From Chloroflexota bacterium (lineage in GTDB: Bacteria > Chloroflexota > Limnocylindria > Limnocylindrales > CSP1-4): 55,604 bases of DNA. Under the pieces are notes generated by a model that ran no database searches, was not told where the DNA came from, and saw only the letters and a list, made by a program, of their open reading frames with translations. Position numbers and translations under genes: made by a program. This document shows positions 38,478-52,311 of this stretch, in pieces (within the stretch, counting starts at the first letter, position 1; each line of letters starts with the position of its first letter). Location of the stretch: contig PLZO01000029.1 of NCBI GenBank assembly GCA_003152165.1, positions 1 through 55,604 on the forward strand. Reading direction: 5' to 3'.

Positions 38478-39236
38478 TCAAAGTCGTTGGGCGATCTGTT
38501 CCGCGGTCAGCCGTACCTGTTCTCCGACCCAGTCCATGGCCTCGTTGCTGAACAGGGAGACGCCTATGCTCGCCTCGATCCGGCCATCTCGCACGGACAC
38601 AGGAGCGGACACCCCCCAGGTGCCGGGGATTACCTCCTCGTGGGTCACTACGTAGCCGACCACGCGCGCCTGGGTCACCTCGTATCTCTCACTGGACTCA
38701 GGTGCTCGCGCGGCGAGGATAGCGAGGCCAGCCGATCCGCGCGTGAGTGGGTGGCTTTGGCCCGCACGGTAAGCGATGTGGACGTCGGCTCGTCGGGGTT
38801 CAACGGTCGCGAGCACGACGACTTCGTCACCGTCAGCTATGGCTATGTTGGCCGTCGCTTTCACCGTGTCAGCCAGTTCCCCCAGAAGGGGCAACGCAAC
38901 CGAACGTAGGTCCTGACTGACCGCTTTCGCGAGGCGGATGATGCCGGCAGCGAGTTGGTAACGCTTGTCCTCGTCGCACGTGACGAGATGGTGCGCGGCG
39001 AGGGTGCGGAGGAGCCGGTGGACAATCGTGCGGTCGAGTCTGAGATTGGTGGCAATCTCTGTCATTGTGAGACCGCTCGGGAGATCTGCCACCAGGTCGA
39101 GGACCCTGAGCCCGCGATCCAACGTCTTTGCGACGTCATTGGCCTGGCGCACCGCGGCATAGTCACCTCTAACTGACCTGGGATCGGTGGCGCTCAACTC
39201 CAAACTGGATCCCAATGCGGATACCTCCATCGACAT
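38478..39236 (-). CDS. IclR-family transcriptional regulator
   Basis: TLDRGLRVLDLVADLPSGLTMTEIATNLRLDRTIVHRLLRTLAAHHLV plus an effector domain. It is divergent from the M24 gene. Confidence 0.9.
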   Translation of the reverse strand: MSMEVSALGSSLELSATDPRSVRGDYAAVRQANDVAKTLDRGLRVLDLVADLPSGLTMTEIATNLRLDRTIVHRLLRTLAAHHLVTCDEDKRYQLAAGIIRLAKAVSQDLRSVALPLLGELADTVKATANIAIADGDEVVVLATVEPRRADVHIAYRAGQSHPLTRGSAGLAILAARAPESSERYEVTQARVVGYVVTHEEVIPGTWGVSAPVSVRDGRIEASIGVSLFSNEAMDWVGEQVRLTAEQIAQRL

Positions 39237-39388
39237 CCCCCTTGACGCGGTAACTAGCCCGATCTACAGTTCAAGCATAACGCACGGTGCATGCGTATAT
39301 CGCACAGTCTACGGGCGATCGCTCGGGTCCGCAACTCGTCTGGCAGCCGACCACGAGCGACCGATCGGACGAAAGAGGGGAAAGCACG

Positions 39389-41074
39389 TTGCGCTTCGTG
39401 ACGAACGACCCAGCGAAGGTGGCCGAAGCCACAGGCTTCGACTCCTGGTATCGCTCGCTCCCGCCGAAGCTCGGCATCGACCAGTCCCGCACGGTACTCC
39501 CGATCCTCGTCACCGGCGGCGACATCGCCCCGGTCGTTGTGACGAAGGAAATCGATCGGACCAACCTCGAGTCGATCGACAACCCGGGAGTGCGGTTCGT
39601 CTTCCACAGCCCCTACTTTTCGTTCGACGCGCTCGACCGGCCCAGCGACGCTTACGCCAGTCTGCCCGAAGCCGTTTCGGACGTGGTTGGCTCCGATGCC
39701 GAGCTCGACCCCGACCTGGCGGTGGGCCTGTACGCGGAGCTGGCCGAGCGGCTCGGCACCCCGTCGGTCAGCAGCGGCGAGTTCCAGGCTCCGATGAACC
39801 ACTACCGGGTGCCACGCGCCACGGTTTCGGCCCAAGCGACCCACGGCCGGGACACCGCAGCGATCGCCGCCGCGCCGTACATCGACGCGATGGAGGCGCC
39901 GGGCCGGATCCGGGAGTGGCTCGCGAAGCCAGCCGGTGACGTCCTGTCGTCCCTGGACGACCTGATGCGGCGGGCGACCCTCGACGCCGTCCTCGCCAGC
40001 ACCCCACTCAACGTCCAGGAACTCACAGGGGTCCCGGCCGTTCTCCTCGCCGACGGGGTCTGGGCGGTCTACTTGCGGGAGGCGCCCGAGGTGCACGTTC
40101 TGGCGCGCAGGGAACTGCCATGGCTGGGACTGCCCGAGCCGGCACCCTCCGATCGTGGTTCGGTGCGGCGCCTCACGGACGGCGCGCGCCTCGGCTACGA
40201 GGAGCTCGACCTGACCCGCCGGGCGTTCGCAGGGTTCGGCCTCGACGGCGTGGCCGCCCTGCCCGCCAGCCTCGTGTTACGCCGGTGGCGCGAGTCCCGC
40301 ACCAGCGAGGACGCCGCCTACTACCTCATGGGCGCGCACATTACCCGTACCGGCATCGACGCCGCGATATGCCTGACCGAGCAGGCCATGGCCTCGGGGG
40401 ACTACGCCACCGAGCTTGACGCGTACGAACGCTACCGGGCCACCGTCGCCGCCGAGGTCGCTAAGCTGCCGATTCGAGTGCGCACGTATTTTACCCACAC
40501 CCACGCGGGCGACCGCACCCACATTCCGGCGAGCGCGACCACGCACCGGATTCACCCGCGGACCAGCCTAAAGATCGATGCTGGCCTAGAGGTCTATGAC
40601 GAGCGTGGTTACCTGCGCGCGGTCTCCGACATCACCCGGTCGGCGGTGGGCAGACCAGAGGCGAGGGAGTTCTACCGGCTGCTCGACCGGACACTCACCG
40701 AGAGCGTGATCGCTGCCTGCCGTCCCGGGCGGACCGGTCAGGAGGTCTTCGCAGCGGGCATGAACGAGCTGGAGCGGGACCGCTCGTGGCTGGTGGAATC
40801 GGGGTTCTGCCCGCCGTCGGACGGATCCCTCGCCGAGATATTCGGCCGTGACATCGGGCACCTGCTGGGCAAGCAAGAGCCGGCGACCGTCGTGCTGCAA
40901 AAGGGATGTGCCGAAACGCTCGAGCCGGGCATGGTCGCCGCAGCCGAGATCCAGTGGCCCTACCGTGACTACTGCATCGGCGTCGAAGACGTCTTCCTCG
41001 TCACACACGACGAGCCGATCAACCTCACCCGAGTGGCCAGACCGAGCGTGTCCTGGAGTCCGGGGATGCGCTGA
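39389..41074 (+). CDS. M24-family (creatinase / Xaa-Pro peptidase fold) hydrolase with a long N-terminal region
   Basis: The C-terminal pita-bread domain reads LKIDAGLEVYDERGYLRAVSDITRS, RDIGHLLG, LEPGMVAAAEIQW and GVEDVFLVTHDEPINLT. I place the start at TTG 39389 after GAGGGG; the track ORF starts at 39287. Confidence 0.75.
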   Translation: MRFVTNDPAKVAEATGFDSWYRSLPPKLGIDQSRTVLPILVTGGDIAPVVVTKEIDRTNLESIDNPGVRFVFHSPYFSFDALDRPSDAYASLPEAVSDVVGSDAELDPDLAVGLYAELAERLGTPSVSSGEFQAPMNHYRVPRATVSAQATHGRDTAAIAAAPYIDAMEAPGRIREWLAKPAGDVLSSLDDLMRRATLDAVLASTPLNVQELTGVPAVLLADGVWAVYLREAPEVHVLARRELPWLGLPEPAPSDRGSVRRLTDGARLGYEELDLTRRAFAGFGLDGVAALPASLVLRRWRESRTSEDAAYYLMGAHITRTGIDAAICLTEQAMASGDYATELDAYERYRATVAAEVAKLPIRVRTYFTHTHAGDRTHIPASATTHRIHPRTSLKIDAGLEVYDERGYLRAVSDITRSAVGRPEAREFYRLLDRTLTESVIAACRPGRTGQEVFAAGMNELERDRSWLVESGFCPPSDGSLAEIFGRDIGHLLGKQEPATVVLQKGCAETLEPGMVAAAEIQWPYRDYCIGVEDVFLVTHDEPINLTRVARPSVSWSPGMR

Positions 41075-41084
41075 CACGCGACCA

Positions 41085-41359
41085 GCTCAACCTTGACCTC
41101 CAGGATATCTGCTATCAGTTTACGAAGACGGTGGTGTTCGTCACTCACAGTATCGGGGAGGCTATTTTCCTGTCGGATCGCGTCCCTCGTGTTCGGCCCA
41201 CGACCAGGCCGCATCGTTGATGAGTTTCACATTGACTTGCCGCGCCCACGGCGATATGCAGACAGATCGTCATACCGGTTCGGCACGTACGCCGAGAGGA
41301 TCCGGAATACATTTCAGGAAATGGGCGTCATCAAGGAGAGGAAGCTCGACAATGGATGA
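41085..41359 (+). pseudogene. 3' remnant of a NitT/TauT-type ABC ATPase (frameshifted)
   Basis: LQDICYQFTKTVVFVTHSIGEAIFLSDRV, then a shift to FGPRPGRIVDEFHIDLPRPRRYADRSSYRFGTYAERIRNTFQEMG. Walker A, the signature and Walker B are absent. Confidence 0.7.
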
Positions 41360-41401
41360 ATGCCGCTGGCGCATTGTGCACCGGACGCGAGCGGACCCGC
41401 G

Positions 41402-42304
41402 ATGCTGAAGTCGTTTCGCATATGTGAGCCGGGATCTGTGGAGGAGGCATGTGAGTTCCTCGCCCAGCACGGTCTCGCTGCCGCCGTGTACGCCGGAGGC
41501 ACAGAGCTGCTTCTCGCGATGAAGGAGGACCTGCTCGCACCGGAGTACCTCGTCGACGTCAAGCACCTCGGTTTGGGGGGCATCTCCTTCAGCAGCTCCG
41601 GACGCGAAGTGCGCATCGGTGCCACCACGACCCACCGGGAGCTCGAAGCCTGGTCAGCGTCGCGTTCGCAGTGGGAGGCGCTGGCCGAGATGGAGCACGG
41701 CGTGGCCAACGTCCGTGTCAGGAACCAGGGAACTATTGGCGGAAATCTCTGCTTCGGGGAGCCGCACGCCGACCCAGGGACCTTGCTGAGCGCGTGGGAT
41801 GCGTCAGTGGAGATCACTGATCCGCATGGGCGTCGTCAGCTGCCGATCGGCGGCTTCCTTCTCGACGAGTTCGCGACCGCCCTGGCGGAAGGGGACGTGA
41901 TGACGGCGGTGGTCATTCCGCCCGCACCGGCGCGTTCCGGCACTGCGTATCTGCGGTTCGGCTTCCTCGAGCGCCCAACGATCGGCGTGGCGACTCAGGT
42001 TGCGCTCGATCCCGACGGCGAGACAGTAAGCCAGACCCGGATTGCGGTTGGGGCGGTTGGGCCGCGGCCGGAGCGGATCGAGCCCGCCGAGTCCGAACTG
42101 GTCGGAGTGCACTCCGGCACGGGGGAGTGGCCGATGGCAGTGGCGCGGGCGGCATCTCGCGCCGCCGAGACCTGCACGGTCGCCGCCGACGCCCACGGCT
42201 CCGAAGATTACAAGCGGCACCTGGTAGAGGTCTTCGTATGGCGGGCGCTGGAAGTGGCCCGCGCACGCGCACATGCCGATGCAGCACGAAACGCAGGGCA
42301 GTGA
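41402..42304 (+). CDS. Molybdenum hydroxylase FAD-binding (medium, CoxM/XdhB-like) subunit
   Basis: MLKSFRICEPGSVEEACEFL...AVYAGGTELLLAMKE, ATTTHRELE and VRNQGTIGGNLC. Confidence 0.85.
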   Translation: MLKSFRICEPGSVEEACEFLAQHGLAAAVYAGGTELLLAMKEDLLAPEYLVDVKHLGLGGISFSSSGREVRIGATTTHRELEAWSASRSQWEALAEMEHGVANVRVRNQGTIGGNLCFGEPHADPGTLLSAWDASVEITDPHGRRQLPIGGFLLDEFATALAEGDVMTAVVIPPAPARSGTAYLRFGFLERPTIGVATQVALDPDGETVSQTRIAVGAVGPRPERIEPAESELVGVHSGTGEWPMAVARAASRAAETCTVAADAHGSEDYKRHLVEVFVWRALEVARARAHADAARNAGQ

Positions 42305-42810
42305 TGGCGAGGAGCATCGCAATGAACCGGGTCAGTGAGCGACGCAGGATCCGCTGCAAGGTAAACGGTCACGACATTGACCGCGAGGTTCCAGTTACCC
42401 AACTGCTCGTCGACTTCATCCGTGAGGACCTCAACCTGACCGGTACGAAGCGCTCATGTGACGTACAAGTCTGCGGCGTCTGCACCGTCCTCGTCGACGG
42501 GCGTCCGGTCAGCGCCTGCACGTACCTGGCGTTCGAGGCTGACGGAGCTGAGATTCAGACAATCGAGGGACTCGCGTCCGGTTCGGAACTCCACCCGATC
42601 CAGCAGGCGTTCCTCGACGAGAACGCAACTCAGTGCGGCTATTGTACGCCGGGCATGATCCTGGCCACGAAGTCTCTGCTCGAAGATGATGCCCAGCCAA
42701 ATCGAGAACGCATACGGGACTATTTGAAGGGTAACCTATGTCGCTGCACCGGGTACCAGCCGATCCTGTCCGCCGTTGTTCTTGCATCGGAACGGATCCG
42801 GCATGACTAA
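42304..42810 (+). CDS. Molybdenum hydroxylase 2x[2Fe-2S] small subunit
   Basis: The ATG at 42304 overlaps the previous stop. CDVQVCGVCTVLVDGRPVSAC, QCGYCTPGM and NLCRCTGY. Confidence 0.9.
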   Translation: MARSIAMNRVSERRRIRCKVNGHDIDREVPVTQLLVDFIREDLNLTGTKRSCDVQVCGVCTVLVDGRPVSACTYLAFEADGAEIQTIEGLASGSELHPIQQAFLDENATQCGYCTPGMILATKSLLEDDAQPNRERIRDYLKGNLCRCTGYQPILSAVVLASERIRHD

Positions 42811-45124
42811 CACGGTGGTCGGGAAGAGCATCCCCCGTGTGGACGGCATCGATAAAGTAACCGGCCGCGCGAAGTACACCGGGGACCTGAAGTTCGCGGG
42901 AATGGTACACGCCGCAATTGCGCGCAGCTCGTTCCCCCGCGCGCGCATAGACGTCATCCATGCCGACGATGTGCGACAGCGACCCGACGTGATCGCCGTC
43001 CTCACAGCAGAGCAAGTGCCGCCAAGACTCTACGGAACCTTCATCGAGGACCAACCCGTACTCGCGCACGGCGAGGCTCGGTACCAAGGCGAGCCAACGG
43101 CGGTGGTGATCGCGCGCAGCCACGAGGACGCGGTCGGCGGCGCCGCCGACCTCGAGATTGACTGGGACCCGCTCCCTGCGTTAACCACAATCGACCAGGC
43201 GCTGTCCGCAGATGCGCCGCCTGTGCACGCGGAGCAGGGGAGTGAGGGCGTGCCGTGGCTGGCACGTGAGGGCGCCAGCAGCAGGAACTGCTGCCACACG
43301 TTCGCTCGGGAACATGGCGACGTCGACCGTGCACTGGCCTCCGCTACGCACGTCTTCGAGGACACATTTGAGGTACCGGCGCTGCAGGCATTTCCCTTGG
43401 AGCGCTACGAGTGTATCGCCCTATGGGATGGCTCGGAGCTCACGATTTGGTCGGCGACGCAGTCGCCCTTCATCGTCCGGCGCGACCTCGCGCGGCTGTT
43501 CGACCTGCACCTGCACCGAGTGAACGTTGTCGCGCCCCTGATCGGCGGGGGGTTCGGCGCCAAACTCTACACAAAGATCGAACCGATCGGTGCCGCGTGC
43601 GCGTTCGCTGTCCCGGGTCGCCCGGTGAAGCTCTCGCTCAGTGCCAACGAGTCCGCCTTAACGATCACGCAACACGCAGCGCGTGTTCGACTGACAACCG
43701 GCGTCTCGGCTGACGGACTAATCGTCGCCCGTGACTGTCTCAGCCTGTTCAACACCGGCGCGTACGCCGACGCGGGTGCGCGCGTCGCGGACAAGGGCGG
43801 CTATCGCGCGCCCGGCCCGTACCGCATCGACAACGTGCGCAGCCGGTCATGCGCCGTTTACACCAACCTGCCGCCCGCCGGGGCGTACCGCGGGTTCGGC
43901 GCACCGCAGGTCGTTTGGGCCTACGAGTCGCAAATGGACGTGATCGCAGAACGCCTCAGCATGAGCCCGCTCGAACTCCGGCAGCGCAACATCCTGCATC
44001 GAGGGGAACACTTCTCCCCAGATGACACGCCGCTGGATTGCGACCTGCCTGCTTCACTCACCGTCGTTCGCGAACACATGCACGGCGCATCTACCGTCCC
44101 GCCAGACGAGTCTGGTCCGTGGCGCGTGGGCGAGGGTTACGCGGTCGGCCTGAAGGACGGCGGAGGCCAGCGCACGGCATCGAACGCCGAGGTACGCCTT
44201 GAGGAGGACGGCAGTGCGACGGTCCTCGTGGGATCCACCGAAATCGGCCAGGGCATGCTGACAGTGTTCGCGCAGCTCGTCGCGGAAGAGCTTCAGCTTG
44301 AGATCGAGCATGTGCGCGTCGCGTTGCCGGACACGCGTCGAGCCCCATACGACTCGGGAACCAATGCGAGTCGGACCCTCACGCTCGTCGGCAGTGCCGT
44401 CGTGATGGCTGCGCGCCAGATACGTGAGCAGCTCATCGACGCCTTCCGTGACCTCTACGAAGTGCCACCCGGGGCGCAGGCCGTGCTGCGACACGGTGCG
44501 CTCTCGGCCGGCCAGGTTACGGCCTCCGTCGACGAGGTGATTCGGAGGGGGAGCCTGCTGCGAGGAGGGCAGCTCATCGGGACCGGTTACTTCCGCACGA
44601 AGGCAGCCGACAACGTCCTCGGCGGCATGACGGCGTTCTGGGAGCCCGGTGTTGCTGGTGCGCAAGTGCGGGTCGACACCGAGACAGGCTCCGTTCAAAT
44701 CTTGCACTATGTCTCGATACTCGACGTAGGCAGGGCGATCAATCCGAAGCTCTGCGAGGGGCAGGACATCGGGGCTGCCGTCATGGGGATGGGAGCAGCG
44801 CTCTGCGAGCGCCTCGAGTTCGAGGGGGGGCAGCTGCTCAACGCGAGCCTTGTGGACTACCGACTCCCGACGTTCGCCGAGCTGCCGGAGCGCTTCGAGA
44901 CTGTCCTGATCGAGAATGGGGACGGCCCCGGCCCGCACGGTGCACGCGGGATCGGCGAGGGCAGCATCCTTCCCGTTGCGGCCGCGCTTGGGAACGCCAT
45001 CGCCGCTGCGACCGGCGCGCGCGTGTACAACCTGCCGATGACACCAGAAGTCATCTGGCGGGCCATGCGAGAGGCCGCAGCGGCCGAGGGATCGAACACG
45101 AGCGTTGTGCCCGAGGTCAAGTGA
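42803..45124 (+). CDS. Molybdopterin-binding large subunit, xanthine dehydrogenase / aldehyde oxidase family
   Basis: MTNTVVGKSIPRVDGIDKVTGRAKYTGD. The active-site region is PPAGAYRGFGAPQVVWAYESQMD, which is not the CO-dehydrogenase loop. 773 aa. Confidence 0.9.
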   Translation: MTNTVVGKSIPRVDGIDKVTGRAKYTGDLKFAGMVHAAIARSSFPRARIDVIHADDVRQRPDVIAVLTAEQVPPRLYGTFIEDQPVLAHGEARYQGEPTAVVIARSHEDAVGGAADLEIDWDPLPALTTIDQALSADAPPVHAEQGSEGVPWLAREGASSRNCCHTFAREHGDVDRALASATHVFEDTFEVPALQAFPLERYECIALWDGSELTIWSATQSPFIVRRDLARLFDLHLHRVNVVAPLIGGGFGAKLYTKIEPIGAACAFAVPGRPVKLSLSANESALTITQHAARVRLTTGVSADGLIVARDCLSLFNTGAYADAGARVADKGGYRAPGPYRIDNVRSRSCAVYTNLPPAGAYRGFGAPQVVWAYESQMDVIAERLSMSPLELRQRNILHRGEHFSPDDTPLDCDLPASLTVVREHMHGASTVPPDESGPWRVGEGYAVGLKDGGGQRTASNAEVRLEEDGSATVLVGSTEIGQGMLTVFAQLVAEELQLEIEHVRVALPDTRRAPYDSGTNASRTLTLVGSAVVMAARQIREQLIDAFRDLYEVPPGAQAVLRHGALSAGQVTASVDEVIRRGSLLRGGQLIGTGYFRTKAADNVLGGMTAFWEPGVAGAQVRVDTETGSVQILHYVSILDVGRAINPKLCEGQDIGAAVMGMGAALCERLEFEGGQLLNASLVDYRLPTFAELPERFETVLIENGDGPGPHGARGIGEGSILPVAAALGNAIAAATGARVYNLPMTPEVIWRAMREAAAAEGSNTSVVPEVK

Positions 45125-45154
45125 TCACGGGTTGGCGAGAGAGGGCGGTTCGGC

Positions 45155-45637
45155 ATGAAGCTGGAACGACAAGTTGACGTCATGGCGAGCCCAGAGGAAG
45201 TGTGGAAGTTCTTCTGGAACATACCAGAGCTCGCGTCCTGCATTCCTGGATGCACGAGCGCCCGCGCCGAAGGTGAACCGGGACACTACGCAGCAACGGT
45301 GAAGGTTCGCGTCGGGCAGTTTCGTGTCGAGTTCCAGCTGGAGATCGACGTCGTCGACGTGGTGGATGGTCAGAAGATCACCGCGCGCGTCCAGGGAACC
45401 GACCGGCATACGGGGGCCAGGATGGTCTCGGACCTCCAGCTCCGGGTCCTCGCCGCCGAAACGGGCGGCGCAGTCGTCTGGCTGGAGAACGACTTCCAAG
45501 TGTACGGGCGGCTGGCAAGCATGGGTCATAGCATCGTGATGCGGAGGGGCGAGGACATCATGGACGAGTTCGCCCAGAACGTGCGTACCCGCCTCTCACA
45601 CAGCGCACCGAAAGACGATGCGAGTCAACTCGCATGA
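45155..45637 (+). CDS. CoxG-like SRPBCC-fold protein
   Basis: MKLERQVDVMASPEEVWKFFWNIPELASCIPGC...GQFRVEF. Confidence 0.8.
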   Translation: MKLERQVDVMASPEEVWKFFWNIPELASCIPGCTSARAEGEPGHYAATVKVRVGQFRVEFQLEIDVVDVVDGQKITARVQGTDRHTGARMVSDLQLRVLAAETGGAVVWLENDFQVYGRLASMGHSIVMRRGEDIMDEFAQNVRTRLSHSAPKDDASQLA

Positions 45638-46674
45638 GCGCTTCGCCCCAGGGTGCAACTGAGCAAAGCGCACCTGCGTCACCGCACAAAGTCGAGTTCG
45701 GCCTCCTCATGCCGCATTTCACGGAGCACGCGTCGATGGAGTTGCTGCGGGAAGGCAGTCAGCTCGCAGACTCCCTGGGCTTCGACTCACTCTGGGTCCG
45801 CGATCACCTGTTCATATCGCCTGATCACCGGGAGCACGGCGGGATCAGCGACCCCGGGTTCATCACCGAGGGAACGCTGACCCTTGCGGCGCTCGGCGCA
45901 ATGACGAGCCACGTCAAGCTCGGCGCGGCGATCATCACGCCCCACCGTCACGCCATGAAGGTGGCGCAGCTCTTCGCGACGCTCGACTACATGACCGGCG
46001 GGCGCGCAATCCTGGGTATCGGCATGGGCTGGGATGTGCAGGAGTTCAACGCCGTGCAGATGCCCTTCGCCGCGCGCGAGCAGCTCGTCCGCGAGACCGT
46101 AGCGGTATGCCGGCGCGCGTGGGGCCAGACGGAGTTCAGCTTTGAGGGCGAGCAGTTCAAGATCCCATGGGGTAGCGTCAGCCCGCGACCCGTGAGCGGC
46201 GACCTGCCAATCTGGTATGGCGGGCTGTCATTTAAGGCGGTGGGCTTTGCCACCGAGTTCTGCGACGGCTGGATCCCTAGCCGGTTGCCGTACGACCGCA
46301 TGGCTCCGCGCCTCGAACGTGCCAGAGAACTGCTGAAGACTCGCCCGACGACGAAGCCGTTCACATTCGCCGCCATGCCACAGACCTCAATCGCGGCATC
46401 TGCGAACGACGCGCTCTCCAGTTTTAACCTGGACAAGGTCAAGGCGGAGGCGCTCCACCGCGTGCCGGTTGGGGGCGGACGGACGAGCCTCACACTCGAG
46501 GACCTCGAGGGGTATTTGATCTGGGGCAACGGGCGGGACCTTTGCCGCTACGTCGAGCGCTTCATCGAGCTCGGGGTCACCCACATCGTGTTCGACATGC
46601 GCTCGTCATTCAATCGGTTCCTGGAGAACGTGCGCCTCCTAGGCACCGAAGTGATCCCGGAGTTCAACCGATGA
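45634..46674 (+). CDS. LLM-class flavin/F420-dependent oxidoreductase
   Basis: FDSLWVRDH, KLGAAIITPHRH, ILGIGMGW and PIWYGGLSFKAV...CDGWIPSR. The ATG overlaps the CoxG stop. It is a paralogue of 32741-33802. Confidence 0.85.
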   Translation: MSASPQGATEQSAPASPHKVEFGLLMPHFTEHASMELLREGSQLADSLGFDSLWVRDHLFISPDHREHGGISDPGFITEGTLTLAALGAMTSHVKLGAAIITPHRHAMKVAQLFATLDYMTGGRAILGIGMGWDVQEFNAVQMPFAAREQLVRETVAVCRRAWGQTEFSFEGEQFKIPWGSVSPRPVSGDLPIWYGGLSFKAVGFATEFCDGWIPSRLPYDRMAPRLERARELLKTRPTTKPFTFAAMPQTSIAASANDALSSFNLDKVKAEALHRVPVGGGRTSLTLEDLEGYLIWGNGRDLCRYVERFIELGVTHIVFDMRSSFNRFLENVRLLGTEVIPEFNR

Positions 46675-47429
46675 CTGAGCAACCAAGGCAAACTGAGCAA
46701 CCATGGCAATCGGCTATCCCGGAGCATGAATGCGCGATTTACGCAGCGGCCGGATACGGGCGGCGGGTGGTCGCCGGCCGGCGACCCGCACTCATCGTCG
46801 TCGACGCCACACGGAACTTCACCGGCGACCGCCCGCAGCCGATCCTGGAGTCGATCCAACGCTATCCCAACAGCTGTGGAGAGCAAGCCTGGGGCAGCGT
46901 GGCTGCCATAGCACGTCTGCTCGACGCCGCGCACACCGCCGGCGTACCCGTGGTCTTCACACATGGCCCAGTCAACAAGACCGCATGGCCGCTGGGGGGC
47001 TGGGCGCGCACGAGTGCATCTGCTGAGCTCCCTGAGAACGATGCGGAGGGCGAGTCCTTCGTCGCCGAAATCCAGCCTCGTCCGGATGACATGGTGGTGG
47101 AGAAGCGCATGCCCAGCGCGTTCTTCGGCACGTCACTCACCTCGCTGCTCGTGGACGTCGCCAGAGACACGGTAGTGCTCTGCGGCAGGACGGCGAGCGG
47201 GTGTGTCCGAGCATCGGCGATCGATGCCTTCTCCTACGGCTTCCGAGTGCTCGTGGTCGATGAAGCCACCTTCGACCGCAGCAACACCAGCCATCTCGTG
47301 AACCTCTACGAGATCGACCAGAAATACGGAAATGTCATCGGGACTGATGACGCGGTAGAAGTGCTTGGCAGAGTCGACCCGGCGGACGATGTCGACGCTC
47401 CCGCCGACGGAAAGGAGACAGGCCAATGA
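46671..47429 (+). CDS. Isochorismatase-family cysteine hydrolase (amidase type)
   Basis: The ATG at 46671 overlaps the previous stop. A D/K/C triad context is present: ALIVVDATRNF, VVEKRMPSAFFGT and LCGRTASGCVRASAIDA. Confidence 0.85.
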   Translation: MTEQPRQTEQPWQSAIPEHECAIYAAAGYGRRVVAGRRPALIVVDATRNFTGDRPQPILESIQRYPNSCGEQAWGSVAAIARLLDAAHTAGVPVVFTHGPVNKTAWPLGGWARTSASAELPENDAEGESFVAEIQPRPDDMVVEKRMPSAFFGTSLTSLLVDVARDTVVLCGRTASGCVRASAIDAFSYGFRVLVVDEATFDRSNTSHLVNLYEIDQKYGNVIGTDDAVEVLGRVDPADDVDAPADGKETGQ

Positions 47430-47845
47430 CACGCGATACCGCATCGAACAGGCCGTCGCTGCTTACGCGCAACCCTGACGGGATGCCGGCCCCGCGCGGA
47501 TTCTCGCAGACAATCGAGACCCGCGGTCTCGTCTTCGTCTCCGGTCAGCTTCCAGTCGATCAGAACCGGCGCTTGGTCGGCGACGGTGATCCGATCGCAC
47601 AGGTCCGTCAGGTCTTTCATAACCTGAGCGTCGCCCTGGAAGCCAGCGGCGGCGGCCTGAAGCACATTGTCAAGTTTACGGCGTTCGTCGTCGGGACGGA
47701 CGCCTCTGAGGCATTTCGCACCGTTCGTGCAGAGCTGATCGAGCCGCCGTTCCCGACCTCGACAGTCGCCTGCGTCACCGAAATCGTGATCCCCGGAGCG
47801 GTCGTAGAGATCGACGCCATCGCAATCAGCGGGAGCCAAGAGTGA
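47426..47845 (+). CDS. RidA-family protein
   Basis: GLVFVSGQLPVD...QVRQVFHNLSVALEASGGGLKHIVKFTAFV...IVIPGAVVEIDAIA. ATGA overlap with the upstream stop. Confidence 0.9.
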   Translation: MTRDTASNRPSLLTRNPDGMPAPRGFSQTIETRGLVFVSGQLPVDQNRRLVGDGDPIAQVRQVFHNLSVALEASGGGLKHIVKFTAFVVGTDASEAFRTVRAELIEPPFPTSTVACVTEIVIPGAVVEIDAIAISGSQE

Positions 47846-48693
47846 CACCACCCCGAGAGACACCACCCCGCGCCCAAGGACGCATCGCCATGGCCGCTCA
47901 CAGGCAGAGTGCCTCCGCCGTGTGCGCGCCAGGGAATCGCTACGAGAGCCTGCGCGGCAAGGTGGCGCTGGTGACGGGCGCCAGCGGCGACATCGGCCGA
48001 GCCCTCGCCATCGGACTCGCCGCATCCGGCGCCGACGTCGTCGCCGTCGGACGGCGACAAGCCGCCATTTCCCGGCTGGGCGAGGAGCTCACCGCGGCGC
48101 ATGACGTCTCATTCAAAGCGGTCGTCGGCGATCTGTGCGACACAGAAACAGCCGAGCGAATCGCCGAGGAGGCGTGGCGCTGGCACGACGGCGTGGACAT
48201 TGTCGTGAACGCGGCCGGCGTCATCCTGCGCTCCGCGGCGGAGCAGACGACGCCAGCGGAGTGGGATGACACGTTCGCCGTCAACGTGCGCGGCACTTTC
48301 CTGCTGACCCAGCGGCTCGGCGAACGCATGCTTGCCGGAGTCGGCGGATCCATAGTCAACATCACCTCCCTTGCCGGCCACGCAGTGACAGGCGCGCCGA
48401 TCACATACGGTGCCAGCAAGGCCGCCCTGATCTACATAACTCGCTACCTGGCCGTGCGCTGGGCGCCGAAGGTTCGCGTAAACGCGGTGGCACCAGGCTA
48501 CATCCGGACGAGCTTGAATGAGCAGTGGCTCGAGGAGGAAAGCAATCAGCGCTATGTGCTAGATCACACCCCGATGAGACGCGTCGGAAGCCCCGAGGAC
48601 GTGCTGGAAGCGGTGCTGTTCTTGGCCTCACCAGGCGCAGGATTTATCACGGGCCAAAACCTAGGCGTGGACGGAGGTTGGAGTTCGCAGTAA
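47842..48693 (+). CDS. SDR-family oxidoreductase
   Basis: LRGKVALVTGASGDIGRAL, NAAGV and YGASKAAL. The start is GTG 47842 (GTGA overlap) or ATG 47890. Confidence 0.9.
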   Translation: MTPPRETPPRAQGRIAMAAHRQSASAVCAPGNRYESLRGKVALVTGASGDIGRALAIGLAASGADVVAVGRRQAAISRLGEELTAAHDVSFKAVVGDLCDTETAERIAEEAWRWHDGVDIVVNAAGVILRSAAEQTTPAEWDDTFAVNVRGTFLLTQRLGERMLAGVGGSIVNITSLAGHAVTGAPITYGASKAALIYITRYLAVRWAPKVRVNAVAPGYIRTSLNEQWLEEESNQRYVLDHTPMRRVGSPEDVLEAVLFLASPGAGFITGQNLGVDGGWSSQ

Positions 48694-48879
48694 GTGTTCG
48701 CCAAGGCGAACGAGTGGGATCTACGTCCTGGTATGGTCGCCGCGGAGTTCCAGTGGCCGATCGGGAACTACTGTTTCGGCGTCGAAGACGTCTTCATGGT
48801 CACCGACGGCGAGCCTGTGAATCTGATGCGTCAGCGCCAGGAGATCGGAGAACCGCGACGCGTGAGGCGCAGGTCGTGA
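48694..48879 (+). pseudogene. 3' fragment of a second M24 hydrolase gene (paralogue of 39389-41074)
   Basis: LRPGMVAAEFQWPIGNYCFGVEDVFMVTDGEPVNLMR compares with LEPGMVAAAEIQWPYRDYCIGVEDVFLVTHDEPINLTR. They share a 19-nt identical run, cggcgtcgaagacgtcttc. Confidence 0.75.
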
Positions 48880-48892
48880 GAGGAGCAGCTCA

Positions 48893-50104
48893 GTGAATGA
48901 ACTACCTGGGGGCGGGAAAAGCCGCGCCGGCCTGGCATCCCGCCTGCGGGACTTGCCACGATCCGGGATCCGCGAGGTGATGGACCTCGCGGCGACCATC
49001 CCGAACGTCATCCATTTGGAAGTCGGCGAACCCGACTTCCCGACGCCGCCGCACATCGTCGAGGCGGCTGTCCGGGCTGCCCGAGACGGCTACACGAAGT
49101 ACACGCCATCGCGCGGCTACCTGTCGCTTCGTGAGGCACTCTGCGAGAAGCTCGAGCGCCAGAACAAGGTGTCGGCGGCACCGAATGACGTCATCTTCAC
49201 GGTAGGCGGCGTTGGCGCTCTCTTCGAGGCGTTCATGGCGCTGGTGGAGCCCAACGACGTCGTGCTGATCCCCGACCCTGGCTGGCCTCACACTGAGGCG
49301 ATGGTCCTGCTCGCCGGCGGACGCCCGGTCCGTTACCCGCTCCTCCTGGAGCGCGGCTTCGAGCCCGACCTGCAGGCGCTCGAAGAGCTGGCCACGCGGA
49401 CCGCGGCCAAGGCGATCTATATCAATTCGCCGGGGAACCCAACCGGTGGAGTGTTTGGGCGGGCGACCGTGGAGGCCATCTGCGCCATCGCCGACCGTTC
49501 CGGGGCCTACATCGTCTCGGACGAGTGCTACGAGGCGATCACGTTCGGCACCGACCACGTGAGTCCGGCGTCGCTCCTGCCGGAGCGGGTCTTCAGCGCG
49601 TGGAGCTTCTCGAAGACCTACGCCATGACAGGCTGGCGGGCTGGCTATCTGCTCACCCCTCCCGGCCTTGGCGCGGAGGTGACGAAGATCCAGGAGCCAG
49701 TCATCAGCTGCGCCACTGGCATCGTCCAAAAGGCCGCCGAGGCGGCCCTTATTGGACCGCAGGAGTGCGTCTCCGAGATGGTCTCCGCCTATCGTGACCG
49801 ACGTGACCTCATCGTCCGTCTGCTCGAGGGAACCAGCCTTCTGCTCGCGGTTCCGCAGGGTGCGTTCTACGCGATGGTCGACATTTCGGCGGCCGGCCGA
49901 GATTCCCGCGCCTTCGTCCGCTGGCTGCTGACCGAGAAGGGGGTCGCCGTAGCCCCTGGAAGCACGTTCGGCCCGAGCGCGGACCGAGCGGTCCGTGTCT
50001 CGCTGGCATCCGGTCGGCGATCCCTCGCCGAGGGCGTTGGCCGGCTGGCCGAGGCGCTGGGCCAGCAACCGCGCGGTGTCGAGCTCGCCGTTTCGGGGAG
50101 GTGA
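48893..50104 (+). CDS. Class I/II PLP-dependent aminotransferase
   Basis: IHLEVGEPDFPTPPHIVEAA, INSPGNPTG and SFSKTYAMTGWRAGY (PLP Lys). GTG start after GAGAGGAG. Confidence 0.9.
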   Translation: MNELPGGGKSRAGLASRLRDLPRSGIREVMDLAATIPNVIHLEVGEPDFPTPPHIVEAAVRAARDGYTKYTPSRGYLSLREALCEKLERQNKVSAAPNDVIFTVGGVGALFEAFMALVEPNDVVLIPDPGWPHTEAMVLLAGGRPVRYPLLLERGFEPDLQALEELATRTAAKAIYINSPGNPTGGVFGRATVEAICAIADRSGAYIVSDECYEAITFGTDHVSPASLLPERVFSAWSFSKTYAMTGWRAGYLLTPPGLGAEVTKIQEPVISCATGIVQKAAEAALIGPQECVSEMVSAYRDRRDLIVRLLEGTSLLLAVPQGAFYAMVDISAAGRDSRAFVRWLLTEKGVAVAPGSTFGPSADRAVRVSLASGRRSLAEGVGRLAEALGQQPRGVELAVSGR

Positions 50105-50278
50105 ACACGTGGCGGCGTTCATCCTCCTCCGCTCCGGCCACCGCCGCTCCGACCATGCTCCGAGCTCGGGCGCGACCCTCATGAGAGCCTCGACCGCGGG
50201 GCCGCTCTCCGGGACCCGAAGGGCCGTGATGCCCTCAAGCTCTTCTCGGTCTCGAACGCCGTTGTTGAGGAGGTAGAG

Positions 50279-51067
50279 ATGCAGCGAACGTCGCCCGGTG
50301 AGTTGAAAGACCGCGTCAGCGCGGGCGAGCACGTGGTCGGTACATTCCTGAACCTAGGATCACCCCTCGCGACCGAGATCTGCTCGACGGCGGGCCTCGA
50401 TTGGCTCCTGCTTGACCTTGAGCACGGCGCCGGTCCCGAGGCCGACTTGCTGGCCCACTTGCAGGCAACGGGAAACGGGAGCGCCTCACTGGTCGTGCGC
50501 GTCGAGTCCAACGATCGACCGCGTTTCGCCCGTGCTCTCGATATTGGCGCAGCGGGTGTGATGGTTCCGCGCGTCGAAACCGCCGAAGAAGCGGCGACCG
50601 CCGTCTCCTACATGCAGTATCCGCCCGCCGGCACGAGGGGTGTCGCGCTGATGACCCGGGCGGCTCGCTTCGGCGTGGAAGGCTACGATCCGATCCACAG
50701 ATCAGCCAGCCAACTCCTCGGGGTGATCCAGATCGAGAATGAGCGCGCGGTCGCGAACGTCGATGCCATCGCCGCCGTGCCGGGCGTCGATGTGCTCTTC
50801 GTGGGCCCGTCGGACCTTACGTTCTCGATGGCAATCCCCGGCCAGACTCGCGATCCTCGTTATCTTGACGCCCTAGACAAGGTATGCGCAGCCGCCGGCC
50901 GACATCATAAGGCGGCGGGGATCCTCCTCAGGGGCATCCAGGAACTCGACAGCCACATCAGCCTCGGTTTCACATTCATCGGACTCTCTTCTGACAGCGG
51001 CGTCCTTGCGGCCGGCATGCGCGAGCTCGCAGCGGGGTTCCGGCTAGCGGCCAAGTCCAGTGCGTAA
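50279..51067 (+). CDS. HpcH/HpaI-family 2-keto-3-deoxy-acid aldolase
   Basis: VGTFLNLGSPLATEICSTAGLDWLLLDLEHG, VRVESND, IGAAGVMVPRVETAEEA and YPPAGTRG. RBS GAGGAGG. Confidence 0.85.
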   Translation: MQRTSPGELKDRVSAGEHVVGTFLNLGSPLATEICSTAGLDWLLLDLEHGAGPEADLLAHLQATGNGSASLVVRVESNDRPRFARALDIGAAGVMVPRVETAEEAATAVSYMQYPPAGTRGVALMTRAARFGVEGYDPIHRSASQLLGVIQIENERAVANVDAIAAVPGVDVLFVGPSDLTFSMAIPGQTRDPRYLDALDKVCAAAGRHHKAAGILLRGIQELDSHISLGFTFIGLSSDSGVLAAGMRELAAGFRLAAKSSA

Positions 51068-51170
51068 AGTAGCCCTCTACGTCGGGCGACGTCGTGGCGC
51101 AGCTGTCGGGACGGACACGGTGGGGCGTCCAGGCATACGGGTGTCACGGCCTCGACTCGTCCTCCGGTCA

Positions 51171-51920
51171 GTGGCCAGGAACCAGGCGACGCTGCCGGTG
51201 CTGTCGGTGGCCGTCTTTCTTGTGGCTTGGGAGATCGTTGGATCGGGGCTAAACCCGATCCTCCTCGCGACCCCATCCGCCGTCGCGATCGCGTTTTACC
51301 AGATCATCCAGGACGGCACACTCGCGCCCGCGTTCCTGCGCGCCATGGAAGTGCTCGCAGTCGGGTTTGCGCTCGCGGCGCTCCTCGGCATCGCGATCGG
51401 CGTCCTCATGGGCCGGAGTCCAGCGGCCAATCGGGTGTTGTCGCCGTACGTCAGCTTCTTCCTGGCCACACCTTTGGTTGGGGTGGTACCCCTGATCGTG
51501 ATCTGGTTCGGCATCGACTTCCGGCAGAGGTTGCGGTCACCTTTCTGATGTCCATCTGGCCCATCATCGTCGCCACATCCGAAGGCGTCCGTGACACTCC
51601 AGCGACGCGTCTACCACGCGACCGAGCGTTCGGTCATCCGGAACATCGCGATGCCGCATTCGCTGCCGTTCATCTTTGCGGGACTACGCATCGCACTGGC
51701 CAGAGCGCTGGTCGGCGTCATCATCGCCGAGATGGATGTGAGCCTCAAGGGCTTGGGTGGACTCATCACGAACTTCGGTGATTCCTTCGAGACCGCGTCG
51801 TTGATGGCTGCGATCATCACGTCCTCGATGGTCGGGGTGATCGGGACCATGTTCCTCGAGATCCTTCGTCGACGCCTCACCCCCTGGGCGGCCCGACCCA
51901 CCGCTTTGTTCGAAGCCTGA
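51171..51920 (+). pseudogene. NitT/TauT-type ABC permease with two frameshifts
   Basis: Frame A reads ...LVGVVPLIVIWFGIDF. Frame B reads AEVAVTFLMSIWPIIVATSEGVRDTPA. Frame C reads SVIRNIAMPHSLPFIFAGLRIALARALVGVIIAEM.... The first shift sits at a C-run (ttccgg where ttcccgg is expected). Confidence 0.7.
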
Positions 51921-51980
51921 GGGCCCACTTCGATGATCGCCCAGCCTGCGGCTCGTCACCTCAAACGGACGCGAGCAGAC

Positions 51981-52300
51981 ATGATGGATGCAGGCGGCCG
52001 CAGCGGGCGCATCGAAGTCCGCAACGTATCCAAGCGGGATCCCAGGCCCGGGAAGGGATTGGAGAGCCTCTCCTCGTCCTCTCGAAGGTGTCTCTGACAA
52101 TCAAGGAGGGCCGTTTCGTCTCGCCGATCGGCGCGTCGGGCTGTGGCAAGACAACGATGCTCCGGATCATGTCGGGCCTCGTGGCGTACGACGAGGGATC
52201 GGTCCTGCTCGACGGTCAGGTCGTGCGGGGGATCCCATCGTCGATCGGCTTCGTATTTCAGGAGCCGGCGCTTCTTCCGTGGCGTACCGTGCACGACGCG
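51981..52300 (+). pseudogene. 5' fragment of a NitT/TauT-type ABC ATPase (frameshifted and truncated)
   Basis: MMDAGGRSGRIEVRNVSK, then a shift to VSLTIKEGRFVSPIGASGCGKTTMLRIMSGL...GFVFQEPALLPWRTV. It then breaks off; the signature and Walker B are missing. Confidence 0.7.
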
Positions 52301-52311
52301 GCCTGCCCCTG

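Follow-up and report, generated by a model that had tools for sequence, protein, structure and literature searches.

The window analysed here, a stretch of 55,604 nucleotides from a Chloroflexota bacterium (contig PLZO01000029.1), carries a tightly packed operon that joins a molybdenum ring-hydroxylating enzyme to a rare luciferase-like (LLM) oxidoreductase, an amidase and helper enzymes. Judging from the sequence, the chance is somewhat better than even (about 0.55) that it was acquired horizontally and is a partly eroded version of a conserved, uncharacterised operon for N-heterocycle catabolism. Comparison with related loci shows that the putative Mo enzyme is genetically locked to the rare LLM protein, a predicted cysteine-hydrolase amidase, a Rid-family protein devoid of the usual arginine and a short-chain dehydrogenase/reductase (SDR). 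No description of this gene set was found in the literature searched.

Pfam domain calls placed all twelve genes of the island where the first-pass annotation had put them, and direct reading of the sequence found six start/stop overlaps, including one that had been listed only as possible: TGATG at 42302-42306 between the medium and small subunit genes of the Mo enzyme, the large-subunit ATG at 42803 overlapping the TAA at 42808-42810, ATGA at 45634, 46671 and 47426, and GTGA at 47842 between the Rid and SDR genes. The 30-nt gap reported ahead of the CoxG gene is also present (45125-45154). The region had been described as a lower-GC island, and the GC content agrees with this, being 65.0% in the operon and 65.4% in the whole island versus 68.3% in the genome (sd 1.75%, same-size windows); the operon falls at about the 5th percentile of same-size genome windows, which makes the island genuine though not pronounced. 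The contig also carries IS elements close by. The sole sigma-70-like site of the region (39242..39270, forward strand) is located between the IclR and M24-like genes and, since 1.4 such sites are expected by chance, it is suggestive by position only.

The Mo enzyme is encoded on the forward strand by genes for an FAD-binding medium subunit (41402..42304; FAD_binding_5 and CO_deh_flav_C), a small subunit with two [2Fe-2S] clusters (42304..42810; Fer2 and Fer2_2), a molybdopterin large subunit of the xanthine dehydrogenase (XDH) family (42803..45124; Ald_Xan_dh_C, MoCoBD_1 and MoCoBD_2) and a CoxG/SRPBCC fourth component (45155..45637; COXG). The FAD subunit is 70% identical from residue 1 to its orthologue in the related locus L027, and the small subunit, with Cys motifs CxxxxCxxC, CxxC and CxC, is 74% identical. 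The AYRGFGAPQ loop noted in the first pass is residues 361-369 of the large subunit (window 43883-43909), which also retains the catalytic Glu (GIGEG, 716-720), Gln220 (TQSP) and GGGFG248 and does not have the CODH cysteine. Motifs and HMM scores thus uphold its earlier assignment to the XDH-family hydroxylases with intact catalytic residues rather than to form-I CODH, and this predicted four-component enzyme is shown by its motifs to keep all hydroxylase catalytic features. No curated equivalog cut-off was reached by the large subunit: the best NCBIfam model was XdhA (460 bits, cut-off 780), and the XdhA and 4-hydroxybenzoyl-CoA reductase (4-HBCR) models scored above those of PaoC-type aldehyde oxidoreductases. 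The best PDB match was the alpha subunit of 4-HBCR (3e-73), a reductase, which counts against our main reading. No characterised close relative of the large subunit was found, so that its placement is by HMM and PDB scores only, and its orthologues at 67-72% identity are all metagenomic. CoxG is kept in the L027, L012, P0006 and 3300047677 contigs and is absent from the L011 locus. Maturation factors of the XdhC type are encoded elsewhere in the genome.

The LLM gene (45634..46674, forward strand; Bac_luciferase) starts at ATG 45634, the sole start upstream of the conserved EFGLLxPHF strand. Its product is rare: among 5.8 billion proteins, 47 reached E ≤ 1e-40, and it was not found in 400 genomes sampled from the phylum. 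The best family was the F420-dependent TIGR03619 (159.2 bits, just under the cut-off of 166.9), the RutA model giving 39.7 bits, and the best PDB match was Mer by sequence, profile and fold (predicted model, pLDDT 87). FMN enzymes came close behind Mer by profile and fold, with FMN-dependent monooxygenases nearly as close. None of the related clusters examined has a flavin reductase gene, and in locus L017 an npdG scoring above its cut-off adjoins the cluster. The source genome carries cofD, cofE and an FGD-like gene; however, this assembly, 92% complete, yielded no cofG, cofH or npdG, which counts against the F420 reading. Taken together, the scores favour F420 as the probable cofactor. The first-pass annotation had proposed a ring-opening monooxygenase, which stands as one of two readings; given that F420 families score best, that the clusters have no flavin reductase and that one has npdG, a role as reductase appears at least as likely as ring-opening oxygenation.

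Pfam and PDB comparisons assign the next gene (46671..47429, forward strand) to the isochorismatase-fold cysteine amidohydrolases of the N-carbamoylsarcosine amidase/maleamate amidase type. Its Asp45/Lys145/Cys178 triad is invariant among orthologues, and the PDB matches were N-carbamoylsarcosine amidohydrolase (2e-30), 4l07 (1.8e-29) and 3ot4/3uao (4.8e-20), the last two of which we take to be the maleamate amidases Ami and NicF; its relatives are named maleamate amidohydrolase by JGI. The Rid-family gene (47426..47845, forward strand; Ribonuc_L-PSP) had been annotated as a RidA that handles enamines or imines. This assignment does not hold well: the protein reached 60 bits against a TIGR00004 cut-off of 106, and Ser112 occupies the position of the catalytic Arg105, the arginine being aligned to serine in two PDB alignments. 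The nine Rid copies linked to such clusters all have serine there, together with a P-(T/V/A)-S/T-T motif. As this arginine is essential in RidA and RutC (PMC4433059; PMC8113886), imine deaminase activity is doubtful. The eighth gene (47842..48693, forward strand; adh_short) encodes a classical SDR with NAAG123 and YGASK189 motifs; L027 has an orthologue of 71% identity in the equivalent position.

The first pass had set as a test whether co-conservation ties the genes downstream to the large subunit, and synteny in related contigs shows that it does. A handful of contigs from soil metagenomes have the same gene set, and the order M, S, L, CoxG, LLM, isochorismatase-fold amidase, Rid, SDR is kept in independent ones with large subunits of 52-73% identity. 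In L027 the eight genes are 62-85% identical to ours and are followed by NMT1, permease, HyuA, HyuB, HpcH and an ELFV dehydrogenase; the same core occurs in the L011, P0006 and 3300047677 contigs. An ABC transporter of the NMT1 type, a HyuAB pair resembling caprolactamase and an amino-acid dehydrogenase are features of the closest relatives. In L012, whose large subunit is 52% identical, the genes are shuffled, yet L, CoxG, LLM, the amidase and two Rid genes are kept. Of 11 independent contexts with an LLM family member of at least 50% identity, 8 have both an XDH-family large subunit and a Rid gene no more than 10 kb away, and this linkage persists even at 30-35% large-subunit identity, the hydrolases and aldolases being interchangeable among related clusters. 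No orthologue of the large subunit was found in 40 relatives (best, 42% identity); as the LLM and M24-like proteins were likewise not found in the 400 phylum genomes, the pattern is what one would expect of a rare accessory island.

According to these comparisons, the Mo enzyme would use water to place an oxo group beside the ring nitrogen, yielding a lactam or pyridone, and the activated ring would then be reduced by the LLM protein, most likely with F420H2, in the hydroxylase, reductase, enamidase logic of nicotinate fermentation. Amide bonds would next be hydrolysed, in the closest relatives by the ATP-dependent caprolactamase-like HyuAB and in others by a dihydropyrimidinase-like or M24 enzyme, with the NicF/N-carbamoylsarcosine-amidase-like cysteine hydrolase presumably acting at this stage too. 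The resulting alpha-amino acid could be converted to a 2-oxo acid by the aminotransferase here and by a Glu/Leu/Phe/Val-type dehydrogenase in the relatives, and the SDR and a pyruvate aldolase would finish the carbon skeleton.

Several genes flank this core. The IclR-family regulator (38478..39236, reverse strand; HTH_IclR and IclR_C), divergent from the M24-like gene, reached no NCBIfam equivalog cut-off and had no match to the IclR of L017, so it is not orthologous to it. The M24-like gene (39389..41074, forward strand) encodes a divergent M24-fold hydrolase of about 561 residues, in which Peptidase_M24 covers the C-terminal part only. Translation most likely begins at TTG 39389 and gives 561 residues, because the alignment with the top full-length homologues (551-556 aa) begins at residue 37 of the long ORF and there is a GGGG-rich ribosome-binding site ahead of this codon; the N-terminal part is coding (GC3 0.84). 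The protein is one of a rare family whose members measure roughly 555 aa (a search of 1.84 billion representatives gave 124 homologues); it was not found in the 400 genomes sampled from the phylum and had no PDB sequence match, and its Asp/Asp/His/Glu/Glu positions are visible by eye in the alignment. The Creatinase_N plus M24 genes of L015 and L018 are of a different family (31% and 23% identity), so that only its position links it to the pathway. Downstream of the SDR, the class I/II aminotransferase (48893..50104, forward strand; Aminotran_1_2) is aspartate-aminotransferase-like (300 bits, under the cut-off). No counterpart was seen in related loci, which have the dehydrogenases mentioned above instead, and, given its position past a deletion scar, it may stem from a different context. 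The HpcH/HpaI-type class II pyruvate aldolase (50279..51067, forward strand; HpcH_HpaI; about 185 bits with the GarL and HpaI models, under their cut-offs) lies beyond the same scar, yet it recurs in related clusters, with 52% identity to the HpcH of L027. In L017 the aldolase is instead of the DHDPS type, in agreement with an aldolase step kept through non-orthologous replacement.

The first-pass annotation saw in these genes a near-complete route, which the window copy does not bear out: the NMT1-ABC transporter and HyuAB of the closest relatives are missing and deletion scars are left. At 41065..41356 (forward strand), tblastn found the C-terminal ~97 codons of an ABC ATPase (L011_ABC residues 185-281), split across two frames at 67-78% identity; in L011 and the P0006 contig, an intact ABC_tran gene immediately precedes that of the FAD subunit. 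Joined directly to the SDR stop are the last ~47 codons of a second M24-like gene (48694..48831, forward strand; residues 536-582 of the window's M24-like protein, 60% identity, E 4e-11 by tblastn). This stub marks a deletion scar, its position in L027 and the 3300047677 contig being taken by NMT1, permease and HyuAB. Translations, and tblastn queries with the permeases and ATPases encoded at related loci, revealed a degraded ABC importer at 51060..52354 (forward strand), in which part of the permease is out of frame, a stop interrupts it at 51546-51548, and the ATPase breaks off after the Q-loop. An SsuA/NMT1-type substrate-binding protein (53508..54722, reverse strand; SsuA_fam, 82 bits) appears intact and is 27% identical to the NMT1 protein of L012. 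The window copy is thus, as far as these alignments indicate, a rearranged derivative in which the block from M to SDR, the aminotransferase and the aldolase are intact and the cognate transporter and the putatively lactam-opening HyuAB have been deleted, with stubs and a degraded importer left behind.

The two stubs, the missing segment, the broken importer and the nearby IS elements could also mean that the copy is a decaying relic and that the pathway no longer runs in this genome. We give this only tentative credence, as the genes of the eight-gene chain, like those for the aminotransferase and the aldolase, match their orthologues in length and keep their catalytic motifs and overlapping junctions. 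Moreover, contig C56 encodes a related, intact transporter of the NMT1 type (57% identity in the ATPase), the window has a HyuAB pair outside the island, at 431-4776, and a frameshift seen in a metagenome-assembled genome can stem from faulty assembly. As for the chemistry, the rings of pyridine and tetramethylpyrazine are known to be opened by LLM-type enzymes with no dioxygenase involved. Uracil is a further case (the Rut pathway is summarised in PMC8113886), and an FMNH2-dependent LLM might likewise cleave the ring amide bond of the Mo-made lactam as RutA does with uracil, the amidase acting like RutB, Rid like RutC and the SDR like YdfG in reducing an aldehyde. This oxygenolytic route, close to the first-pass view, is mirrored in the LLM-isochorismatase-Rid-SDR order (rutA-rutB-rutC plus ydfG), in weak matches to the RutA, RutB and RutC models (4e-10, 2e-12 and 8e-12), in FMN-dependent LLMs (SfnG, 2i7g, RutA) structurally almost as close as Mer, and in locus L024, which has the Mo large subunit, LLM and Rid and no hydrolase within 12.6 kb. 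We nevertheless find it rather unlikely: the three scores are 40, 47 and 45 bits against equivalog cut-offs of 498, 378 and 169, no cluster has a RutF-type flavin reductase (one has npdG instead), and the amidase is nearer to N-carbamoylsarcosine/maleamate amidases than to RutB (2e-30 versus 2e-4). In addition, the R104A variant of RutC is inactive (PMC8113886), and all nine cluster Rid proteins have serine at that position.

It is improbable that no heteroaromatic is broken down at all, the Mo enzyme being an aldehyde oxidoreductase or 4-HBCR-like reductase and the other genes processing an unrelated amide or amino acid. The top PDB match to 4-HBCR, followed by a Sulfolobus oxidoreductase (presumably the glyceraldehyde oxidoreductase), the glyceraldehyde dehydrogenase beta and gamma subunit models that lead for M and S, and the unreached equivalog cut-offs would agree with it. 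However, the conserved partners (HyuAB/caprolactamase-like, dihydropyrimidinase-like, NicF/CSHase-like) act on cyclic or linear amides, in keeping with C-N bond chemistry once a lactam has formed. Among full-length matches, the PaoC-type and pterin-aldehyde models scored lowest, and the clusters encode neither a CoA ligase nor a ferredoxin partner of the kind typical of 4-HBCR.

Among known systems, Rut of E. coli has the same four folds in the same order, whereas our cluster has no RutF, RutD, RutE or RutG, its Rid has serine in place of the essential Arg104 of RutC (PMC8113886), its LLM is nearer to F420 families, and a Mo hydroxylase and CoxG precede the module. The pic (picolinate) and nic (nicotinate) clusters, with maleamate amidohydrolase PicF/NicF (bioRxiv 10.1101/530550), pair a Mo dehydrogenase acting on a pyridine carboxylate with an isochorismatase-fold amidase, as our cluster does; it lacks their 6-hydroxypicolinate monooxygenase, decarboxylase, 2,5-dihydroxypyridine dioxygenase, deformylase and maleate isomerase, and clusters of its type have LLM, Rid, SDR, HyuAB and aldolase instead. 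HpdA of Ensifer adhaerens HP1 is a four-component 3-hydroxypyridine dehydrogenase (bioRxiv 10.1101/2020.01.08.898148), likewise an XDH-family hydroxylase with an extra SRPBCC/CoxG-type component in its operon. The best plasmid-borne Ensifer large subunits are ~35% identical to ours, a figure not tied to HpdA itself. The 3hpd cluster reportedly continues via 2,5-dihydroxypyridine and the maleamate pathway, in contrast to our cluster, which has no ring dioxygenase, deformylase or maleate isomerase. In the creatinine/N-methylhydantoin route, an ATP-dependent HyuA/HyuB hydantoinase precedes N-carbamoylsarcosine amidase; similarly, HyuA/HyuB adjoin the amidase nearest to solved N-carbamoylsarcosine amidohydrolase in L027 and the 3300047677 contig, although there HyuAB is best described as caprolactamase-like (517 bits, cut-off 1000), no creatinine deaminase or sarcosine oxidase is present and the window island has no HyuAB. 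Nicotinate fermentation by Eubacterium barkeri employs a Mo/Se nicotinate hydroxylase, 6-hydroxynicotinate reductase and enamidase. The protein families are unrelated to those of our cluster at every post-hydroxylase step (here LLM, isochorismatase-fold amidase or HyuAB, SDR and HpcH aldolase, with no B12 mutase), and our route is predicted from genes. Nevertheless, it would share with that pathway (cited in PMC9304392) hydroxylation next to the ring nitrogen, ring reduction, hydrolytic opening with loss of ammonia, and later dehydrogenase and lyase steps ending in pyruvate.

Every gene call of the first-pass annotation was borne out by Pfam and NCBIfam scans. The eight chained genes (41402-48693) encode the FAD subunit M of an XDH-family molybdenum enzyme (41402-42304; Pfam FAD_binding_5/CO_deh_flav_C), the S subunit with two [2Fe-2S] clusters (42304-42810; Fer2/Fer2_2), the molybdenum subunit L (42803-45124; Ald_Xan_dh_C/MoCoBD_1/MoCoBD_2), a CoxG/SRPBCC protein (45155-45637), a luciferase-like protein (LLM, 45634-46674), an isochorismatase-fold hydrolase (46671-47429), a Rid-family protein (47426-47845) and an SDR (47842-48693). 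In the same island lie an IclR gene (38478-39236, minus strand; Pfam/NCBIfam), a class I/II aminotransferase (48893-50104) and an HpcH/HpaI aldolase (50279-51067). The overlapping junctions reported for the chain are all present, as TGATG at 42302-42306, an ATG at 42803 overlapping the TAA at 42808-42810, and ATGA at 45634, 46671 and 47426; a sixth, previously considered only possible, occurs as GTGA at 47842, and the 30-nt gap before CoxG is there as well. The lower GC content ascribed to the island also holds, since GC is 65.0% in the operon and 68.3% in the 3.6-Mb genome as a whole, which ranks the operon near the 5th percentile of windows of the same size. The predicted start of the LLM must be ATG 45634, because its orthologues conserve an EFGLLxPHF strand, which is cut off by gene callers. 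For the M24-like gene (39389-41074) the most likely start is TTG 39389, giving a product of 561 aa; a ribosome-binding site precedes this codon, the N-terminal part has coding-type GC3, and the full-length homologues (551-556 aa) align from residue 37 of the long ORF.

No orthologue of the large subunit was found in 40 relatives, where the best match has 42% identity, and the genome itself encodes 12 paralogues. In a plasmid collection searched with this subunit, all 210 matches were below 40% identity, none of them an orthologue. The true orthologues (67-72% identity) are exclusively metagenomic and lie on contigs that carry the same genes in the same order. One of these loci, L027, contains M, S, L, CoxG, LLM, isochorismatase, Rid and SDR genes with 62-85% identity to those of the window, followed by genes for an NMT1-type binding protein, a permease, HyuA, HyuB, HpcH and an ELFV dehydrogenase. 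Another, L011, has LysR, an ABC ATPase, M, S, L, LLM, isochorismatase, Rid, NMT1 and permease genes. Two JGI metagenome contigs (P0006 and 3300047677) have the same isochorismatase and were read jointly, giving the order HpcH, QRPTase-like, LysR, ABC ATPase, M, S, L, CoxG, LLM, isochorismatase, Rid, SDR, NMT1, permease, HyuA, HyuB, ELFV dehydrogenase, aldehyde dehydrogenase and ThDP enzyme. Even in L012, whose large subunit is only 52% identical, L, CoxG, LLM, isochorismatase and two Rid genes are grouped around an NMT1 transporter and a dihydropyrimidinase-like amidohydrolase. The proposal of a common pathway had been made dependent on the downstream genes being co-conserved with the large subunit; they are found with it, in gene order, in the related contigs, and therefore that ground for rejecting the proposal falls away and the cluster is a real unit.

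The LLM family is rare: of 5.8 billion proteins, 47 match at E<=1e-40. For members with at least 50% identity, an XDH-family large subunit and a Rid gene occur within 10 kb in eight of 11 independent contexts, and this linkage holds even where the large subunit is only 30-35% identical to that of the window (L015, L017 and L024). A search of 400 genomes sampled from the phylum turned up neither the LLM nor the M24-like protein, and scans of genome and metagenome contig collections with patterns from the LLM alignment returned matches that were only remote (25%) or few (50%). That the cluster is a real and rare module is well supported. Two loci, L018 and L030, have LLM relatives (53-54% identity) without any molybdenum hydroxylase; these adjoin citryl-CoA synthetase/lyase-like genes, an HD-domain protein and a second LLM, and in L018 also a methylaspartate ammonia-lyase. 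The QRPTase-like gene beside the P0006 cluster was considered as a clue to quinolinate and rejected, as ModD-type proteins have the same fold.

The copy in the window is a rearranged and partly eroded derivative of this module. Of an ABC ATPase gene directly upstream of the M subunit gene, the C-terminal third is left (41065-41356), with 67-78% identity to the ATPase that precedes this subunit in L011; the remnant is split over two frames and overlaps the end of the M24-like gene. On the other side, the SDR stop is followed without a gap by the final ~47 codons (48694-48831) of another M24-like gene, 60% identical to residues 536-582 of the one at 39389-41074; this stub is a deletion scar, and relatives have their NMT1, permease and HyuAB genes in this position. 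Downstream of HpcH, a permease gene has an out-of-frame stretch and a stop at 51546-51548, and an ABC ATPase gene ends after the Q-loop, near 52354. After this shortened ATPase there is a fragment of an alpha/beta-hydrolase (52411-52740, minus strand), 36% identical to a hydrolase of L015. The SsuA/NMT1-type binding protein (53508-54722) looks intact, a related transporter is intact on another contig of the genome (C56), and a HyuA/HyuB-type pair 37 kb upstream of the island (431-4776) is 39% and 29% identical to HyuAB of L027. The chain of eight genes is full length throughout, as are the aminotransferase and the aldolase, and all of them keep their motifs. For this genome, the region represents an accessory island caught mid-decay. 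Just past the window (L031; G000:C24:55000-71878) is a mosaic catabolic region. An IS3-type integrase and an IS1595 transposase are encoded there, together with two Amidohydro_1 genes, of which one has 43% identity to the dihydropyrimidinase-like gene of L012, a further S-M-L hydroxylase operon and an isolated hammerhead fragment of a molybdenum subunit.

The domains of the M, S and L subunits all score far above the Pfam gathering thresholds, as expected of an XDH-family heterotrimer, and two XdhC/CoxI maturation factors are encoded elsewhere in the genome. In the large subunit, GIGEG716-720, with the active-site Glu that acts as base, aligns with GVGES of CODH (1n5w), TQSP219-222, with the Gln near Mo=O, aligns with FQAP, and GGGFG is found at 248. 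The view that this protein is not a CO dehydrogenase proved correct, since its loop reads AYRGFGAPQ (residues 361-369; 43883-43909) instead of AYRCSFR with the Cu-binding Cys, and the form I CoxL model TIGR02416 gives 262 bits against a cut-off of 991. It also falls short of the models for bona fide xanthine dehydrogenases (NF043082 (XdhA), 460 vs 780; PRK09970, 445 vs 916; pucD, 368 vs 784) and of those for 4-HBCR (435 vs 995) and PaoC (279 vs 1180), so that no equivalog is reached. Its best solved relatives in the PDB, all of them remote, are 4-HBCR (3e-73), 6-hydroxypseudooxynicotine dehydrogenase (3e-63), quinoline oxidoreductase (4e-57) and nicotinate dehydrogenase (1e-51). For a fourth, SRPBCC component, as is present here, there is a precedent in the four-component 3-hydroxypyridine dehydrogenase HpdA (bioRxiv 10.1101/2020.01.08.898148). 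The large-subunit clades that come closest without being orthologous (46-48% identity) have tandem L-L genes in neighbourhoods quite unlike that of the operon, one of them beside TctABC and cupins, and the other beside TenA/THI-4, UbiD, a split ThDP enzyme and several NMT1 binding proteins; for the latter clade, TenA and NMT1 as neighbours are a hint of a pyrimidine (HMP-like) substrate.

The amidase is an isochorismatase-like cysteine hydrolase, with Asp45, Lys145 and Cys178 invariant in the proteins of the window, L011 and L012. In the PDB its best matches are N-carbamoylsarcosine amidohydrolase (2e-30) and 4l07 (1.8e-29), the Ami maleamate amidase from Pseudomonas putida S16, with RutB matching only at 2e-4; its relatives are named maleamate amidohydrolase by JGI. 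The Rid protein departs from the RidA archetype (TIGR00004, 60 bits vs 106). It lacks the catalytic Arg105 (Arg104 in RutC), as Ser112 aligns with this residue in two PDB alignments, and in all nine cluster-linked Rid proteins the position is occupied by Ser or, in one copy, Thr. Imine hydrolysis by RidA needs Arg105 (PMC4433059) and the R104A variant of RutC is inactive (PMC8113886). Therefore the role in handling enamine or imine products that had been assigned to the Rid protein is unsupported, and a strict analogy with the Rut pathway is weakened as well. About 10% of RidA-subfamily proteins have Ser at this position, with consequences that are not known according to Niehaus et al. (PMC4433059), and the strict conservation of the Arg-to-Ser change in the cluster offers a handle on what Arg-less Rid proteins do.

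The LLM had been proposed to be a ring-opening monooxygenase. It is true that the order LLM-isochorismatase-Rid-SDR mirrors RutA-RutB-RutC plus YdfG, and there are weak matches to all three Rut models. However, the LLM reaches only 39.7 bits with the RutA model (cut-off 498.3), no flavin reductase gene, including the RutF partner, was found in any related cluster, and the best family by far is TIGR03619, of F420-dependent LLMs (Rv2161c family), with 159.2 bits vs 166.9. A paralogous LLM in the window (32741-33802, minus strand), 32% identical to that of the operon, passes this model (167.9 vs 166.9). The best PDB relative of the operon LLM by sequence, profile and fold is the F420-dependent Mer, although the fold search with its model cannot separate F420 from FMN users, Mer coming first with SfnG, 2i7g and others in the same score range. 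As to the supply of the cofactor, the genome has an F420 gene cluster (G000:C167:9220-14241) with an FGD-like LLM, cofD, cofE and another LLM, and in L017 npdG, for an NADPH-dependent F420 reductase (155.8 vs 149.8), lies ~5 kb upstream of the LLM gene; cofG, cofH and npdG were not found in the window's genome, which is 92% complete. An F420H2-dependent reductase is favoured over a RutA-like oxygenase, a preference that we hold to roughly two to one because FMN enzymes are structurally nearly as close and the published classification of these proteins offers no sequence fingerprint or rule (PMC8518648).

The genes that accompany this core differ among the clusters. As the additional hydrolase, L017, L027 and the JGI contig encode an ATP-dependent HyuA/HyuB of the caprolactamase-like type, L012 an amidohydrolase resembling dihydropyrimidinases and hydantoinases, L015 an enzyme of Creatinase_N+M24 architecture and the window a divergent M24-like enzyme. 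The last belongs to a rare family (124 matches in 1.84 billion representatives, the full-length ones about 550 aa) with an extra N-terminal region; Pfam Peptidase_M24 covers residues 351-573 with 58 bits, ligand-like Asp/Asp/His/Glu/Glu residues can be picked out by eye in the alignment, and searches for an NCBIfam model or a PDB sequence relative found none. We also considered whether it could be the equivalent of the M24 genes of L015 and L018, which was rejected, the identities being only 31% and 23% and the architecture different. An amino acid would be converted to a 2-oxo acid by the aminotransferase of the window, and in L027 and the JGI contig by an ELFV dehydrogenase; C-C cleavage would be carried out by HpcH in the window, L027 and the P0006 contig and by a DHDPS-type aldolase in L017. 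The JGI 3300047677 contig has instead an aldehyde dehydrogenase and a ThDP enzyme, with HpcH at the other end of apparently the same cluster, and L015 has OrtA/OrtB-like genes. The aldolase of the window has the expected fold (Pfam HpcH_HpaI, 133.8 bits) and reaches ~185 bits with the GarL/HpaI models, against cut-offs of 369-407. Taken as a whole, the variable modules fit a pathway in which the ring of a lactam or cyclic ureide is opened and the alpha-amino (di)carboxylate so formed is deaminated and then split to pyruvate and a small aldehyde. Two classes of substrate seem compatible with this, acids of the pyridine- or pyrrole-2-carboxylate type and ureides of the pyrimidine or hydantoin type.

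A more far-reaching reading, to which we give a probability of roughly 0.3, is that a natural N-heterocyclic carboxylate is degraded by a hitherto undescribed route that needs no oxygen, operating through an F420H2-dependent LLM and an Arg-less Rid protein with a new, non-deaminase function. The water-dependent molybdenum hydroxylase would convert the substrate, for which picolinate, pyrrole-2-carboxylate and a pyrimidine or imidazole carboxylate are candidates, to a lactam. This would be dearomatised by the LLM, a new role for F420, and the ring could then be opened by the ATP-dependent and cysteine-type amidases to an alpha-amino dicarboxylate, to be deaminated and finally split by the aldolase.

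Soil bacteria are exposed to many N-heterocycles, such as carboxylates of pyridine and pyrrole, nucleobase derivatives and fragments of alkaloids, and for many of these we know of no catabolic genes. The module provides a defined and testable gene set, composed of a molybdenum hydroxylase, CoxG, LLM, cysteine amidase, Rid protein and SDR, with HyuAB, an amino-acid dehydrogenase and an aldolase as optional members. It recurs in nature, and the literature searched yielded neither a description of this gene set nor a matching pathway. Two sharp biochemical questions arise from it, the cofactor of the LLM and the role of the Arg-less Rid protein. Should the LLM turn out to depend on F420H2, the known reactions of F420 would be widened to include the dearomatisation of hydroxylated N-heterocycles, and the route would need no O2.

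Judging from its gene content, the operon would be a member of neither the Rut pathway, nor the nicotinate route of Eubacterium barkeri, nor the known clusters for N-heterocycle catabolism, because the equivalog scores are not reached and RutF, the Rid arginine and the dioxygenase and isomerase of the maleamate pathway are missing. Nevertheless, it has something in common with each of them: the first step would work as in the known N-heterocycle catabolic clusters, the composition in folds resembles that of the Rut pathway, and the logic favoured here for the operon resembles that of the E. barkeri nicotinate route.
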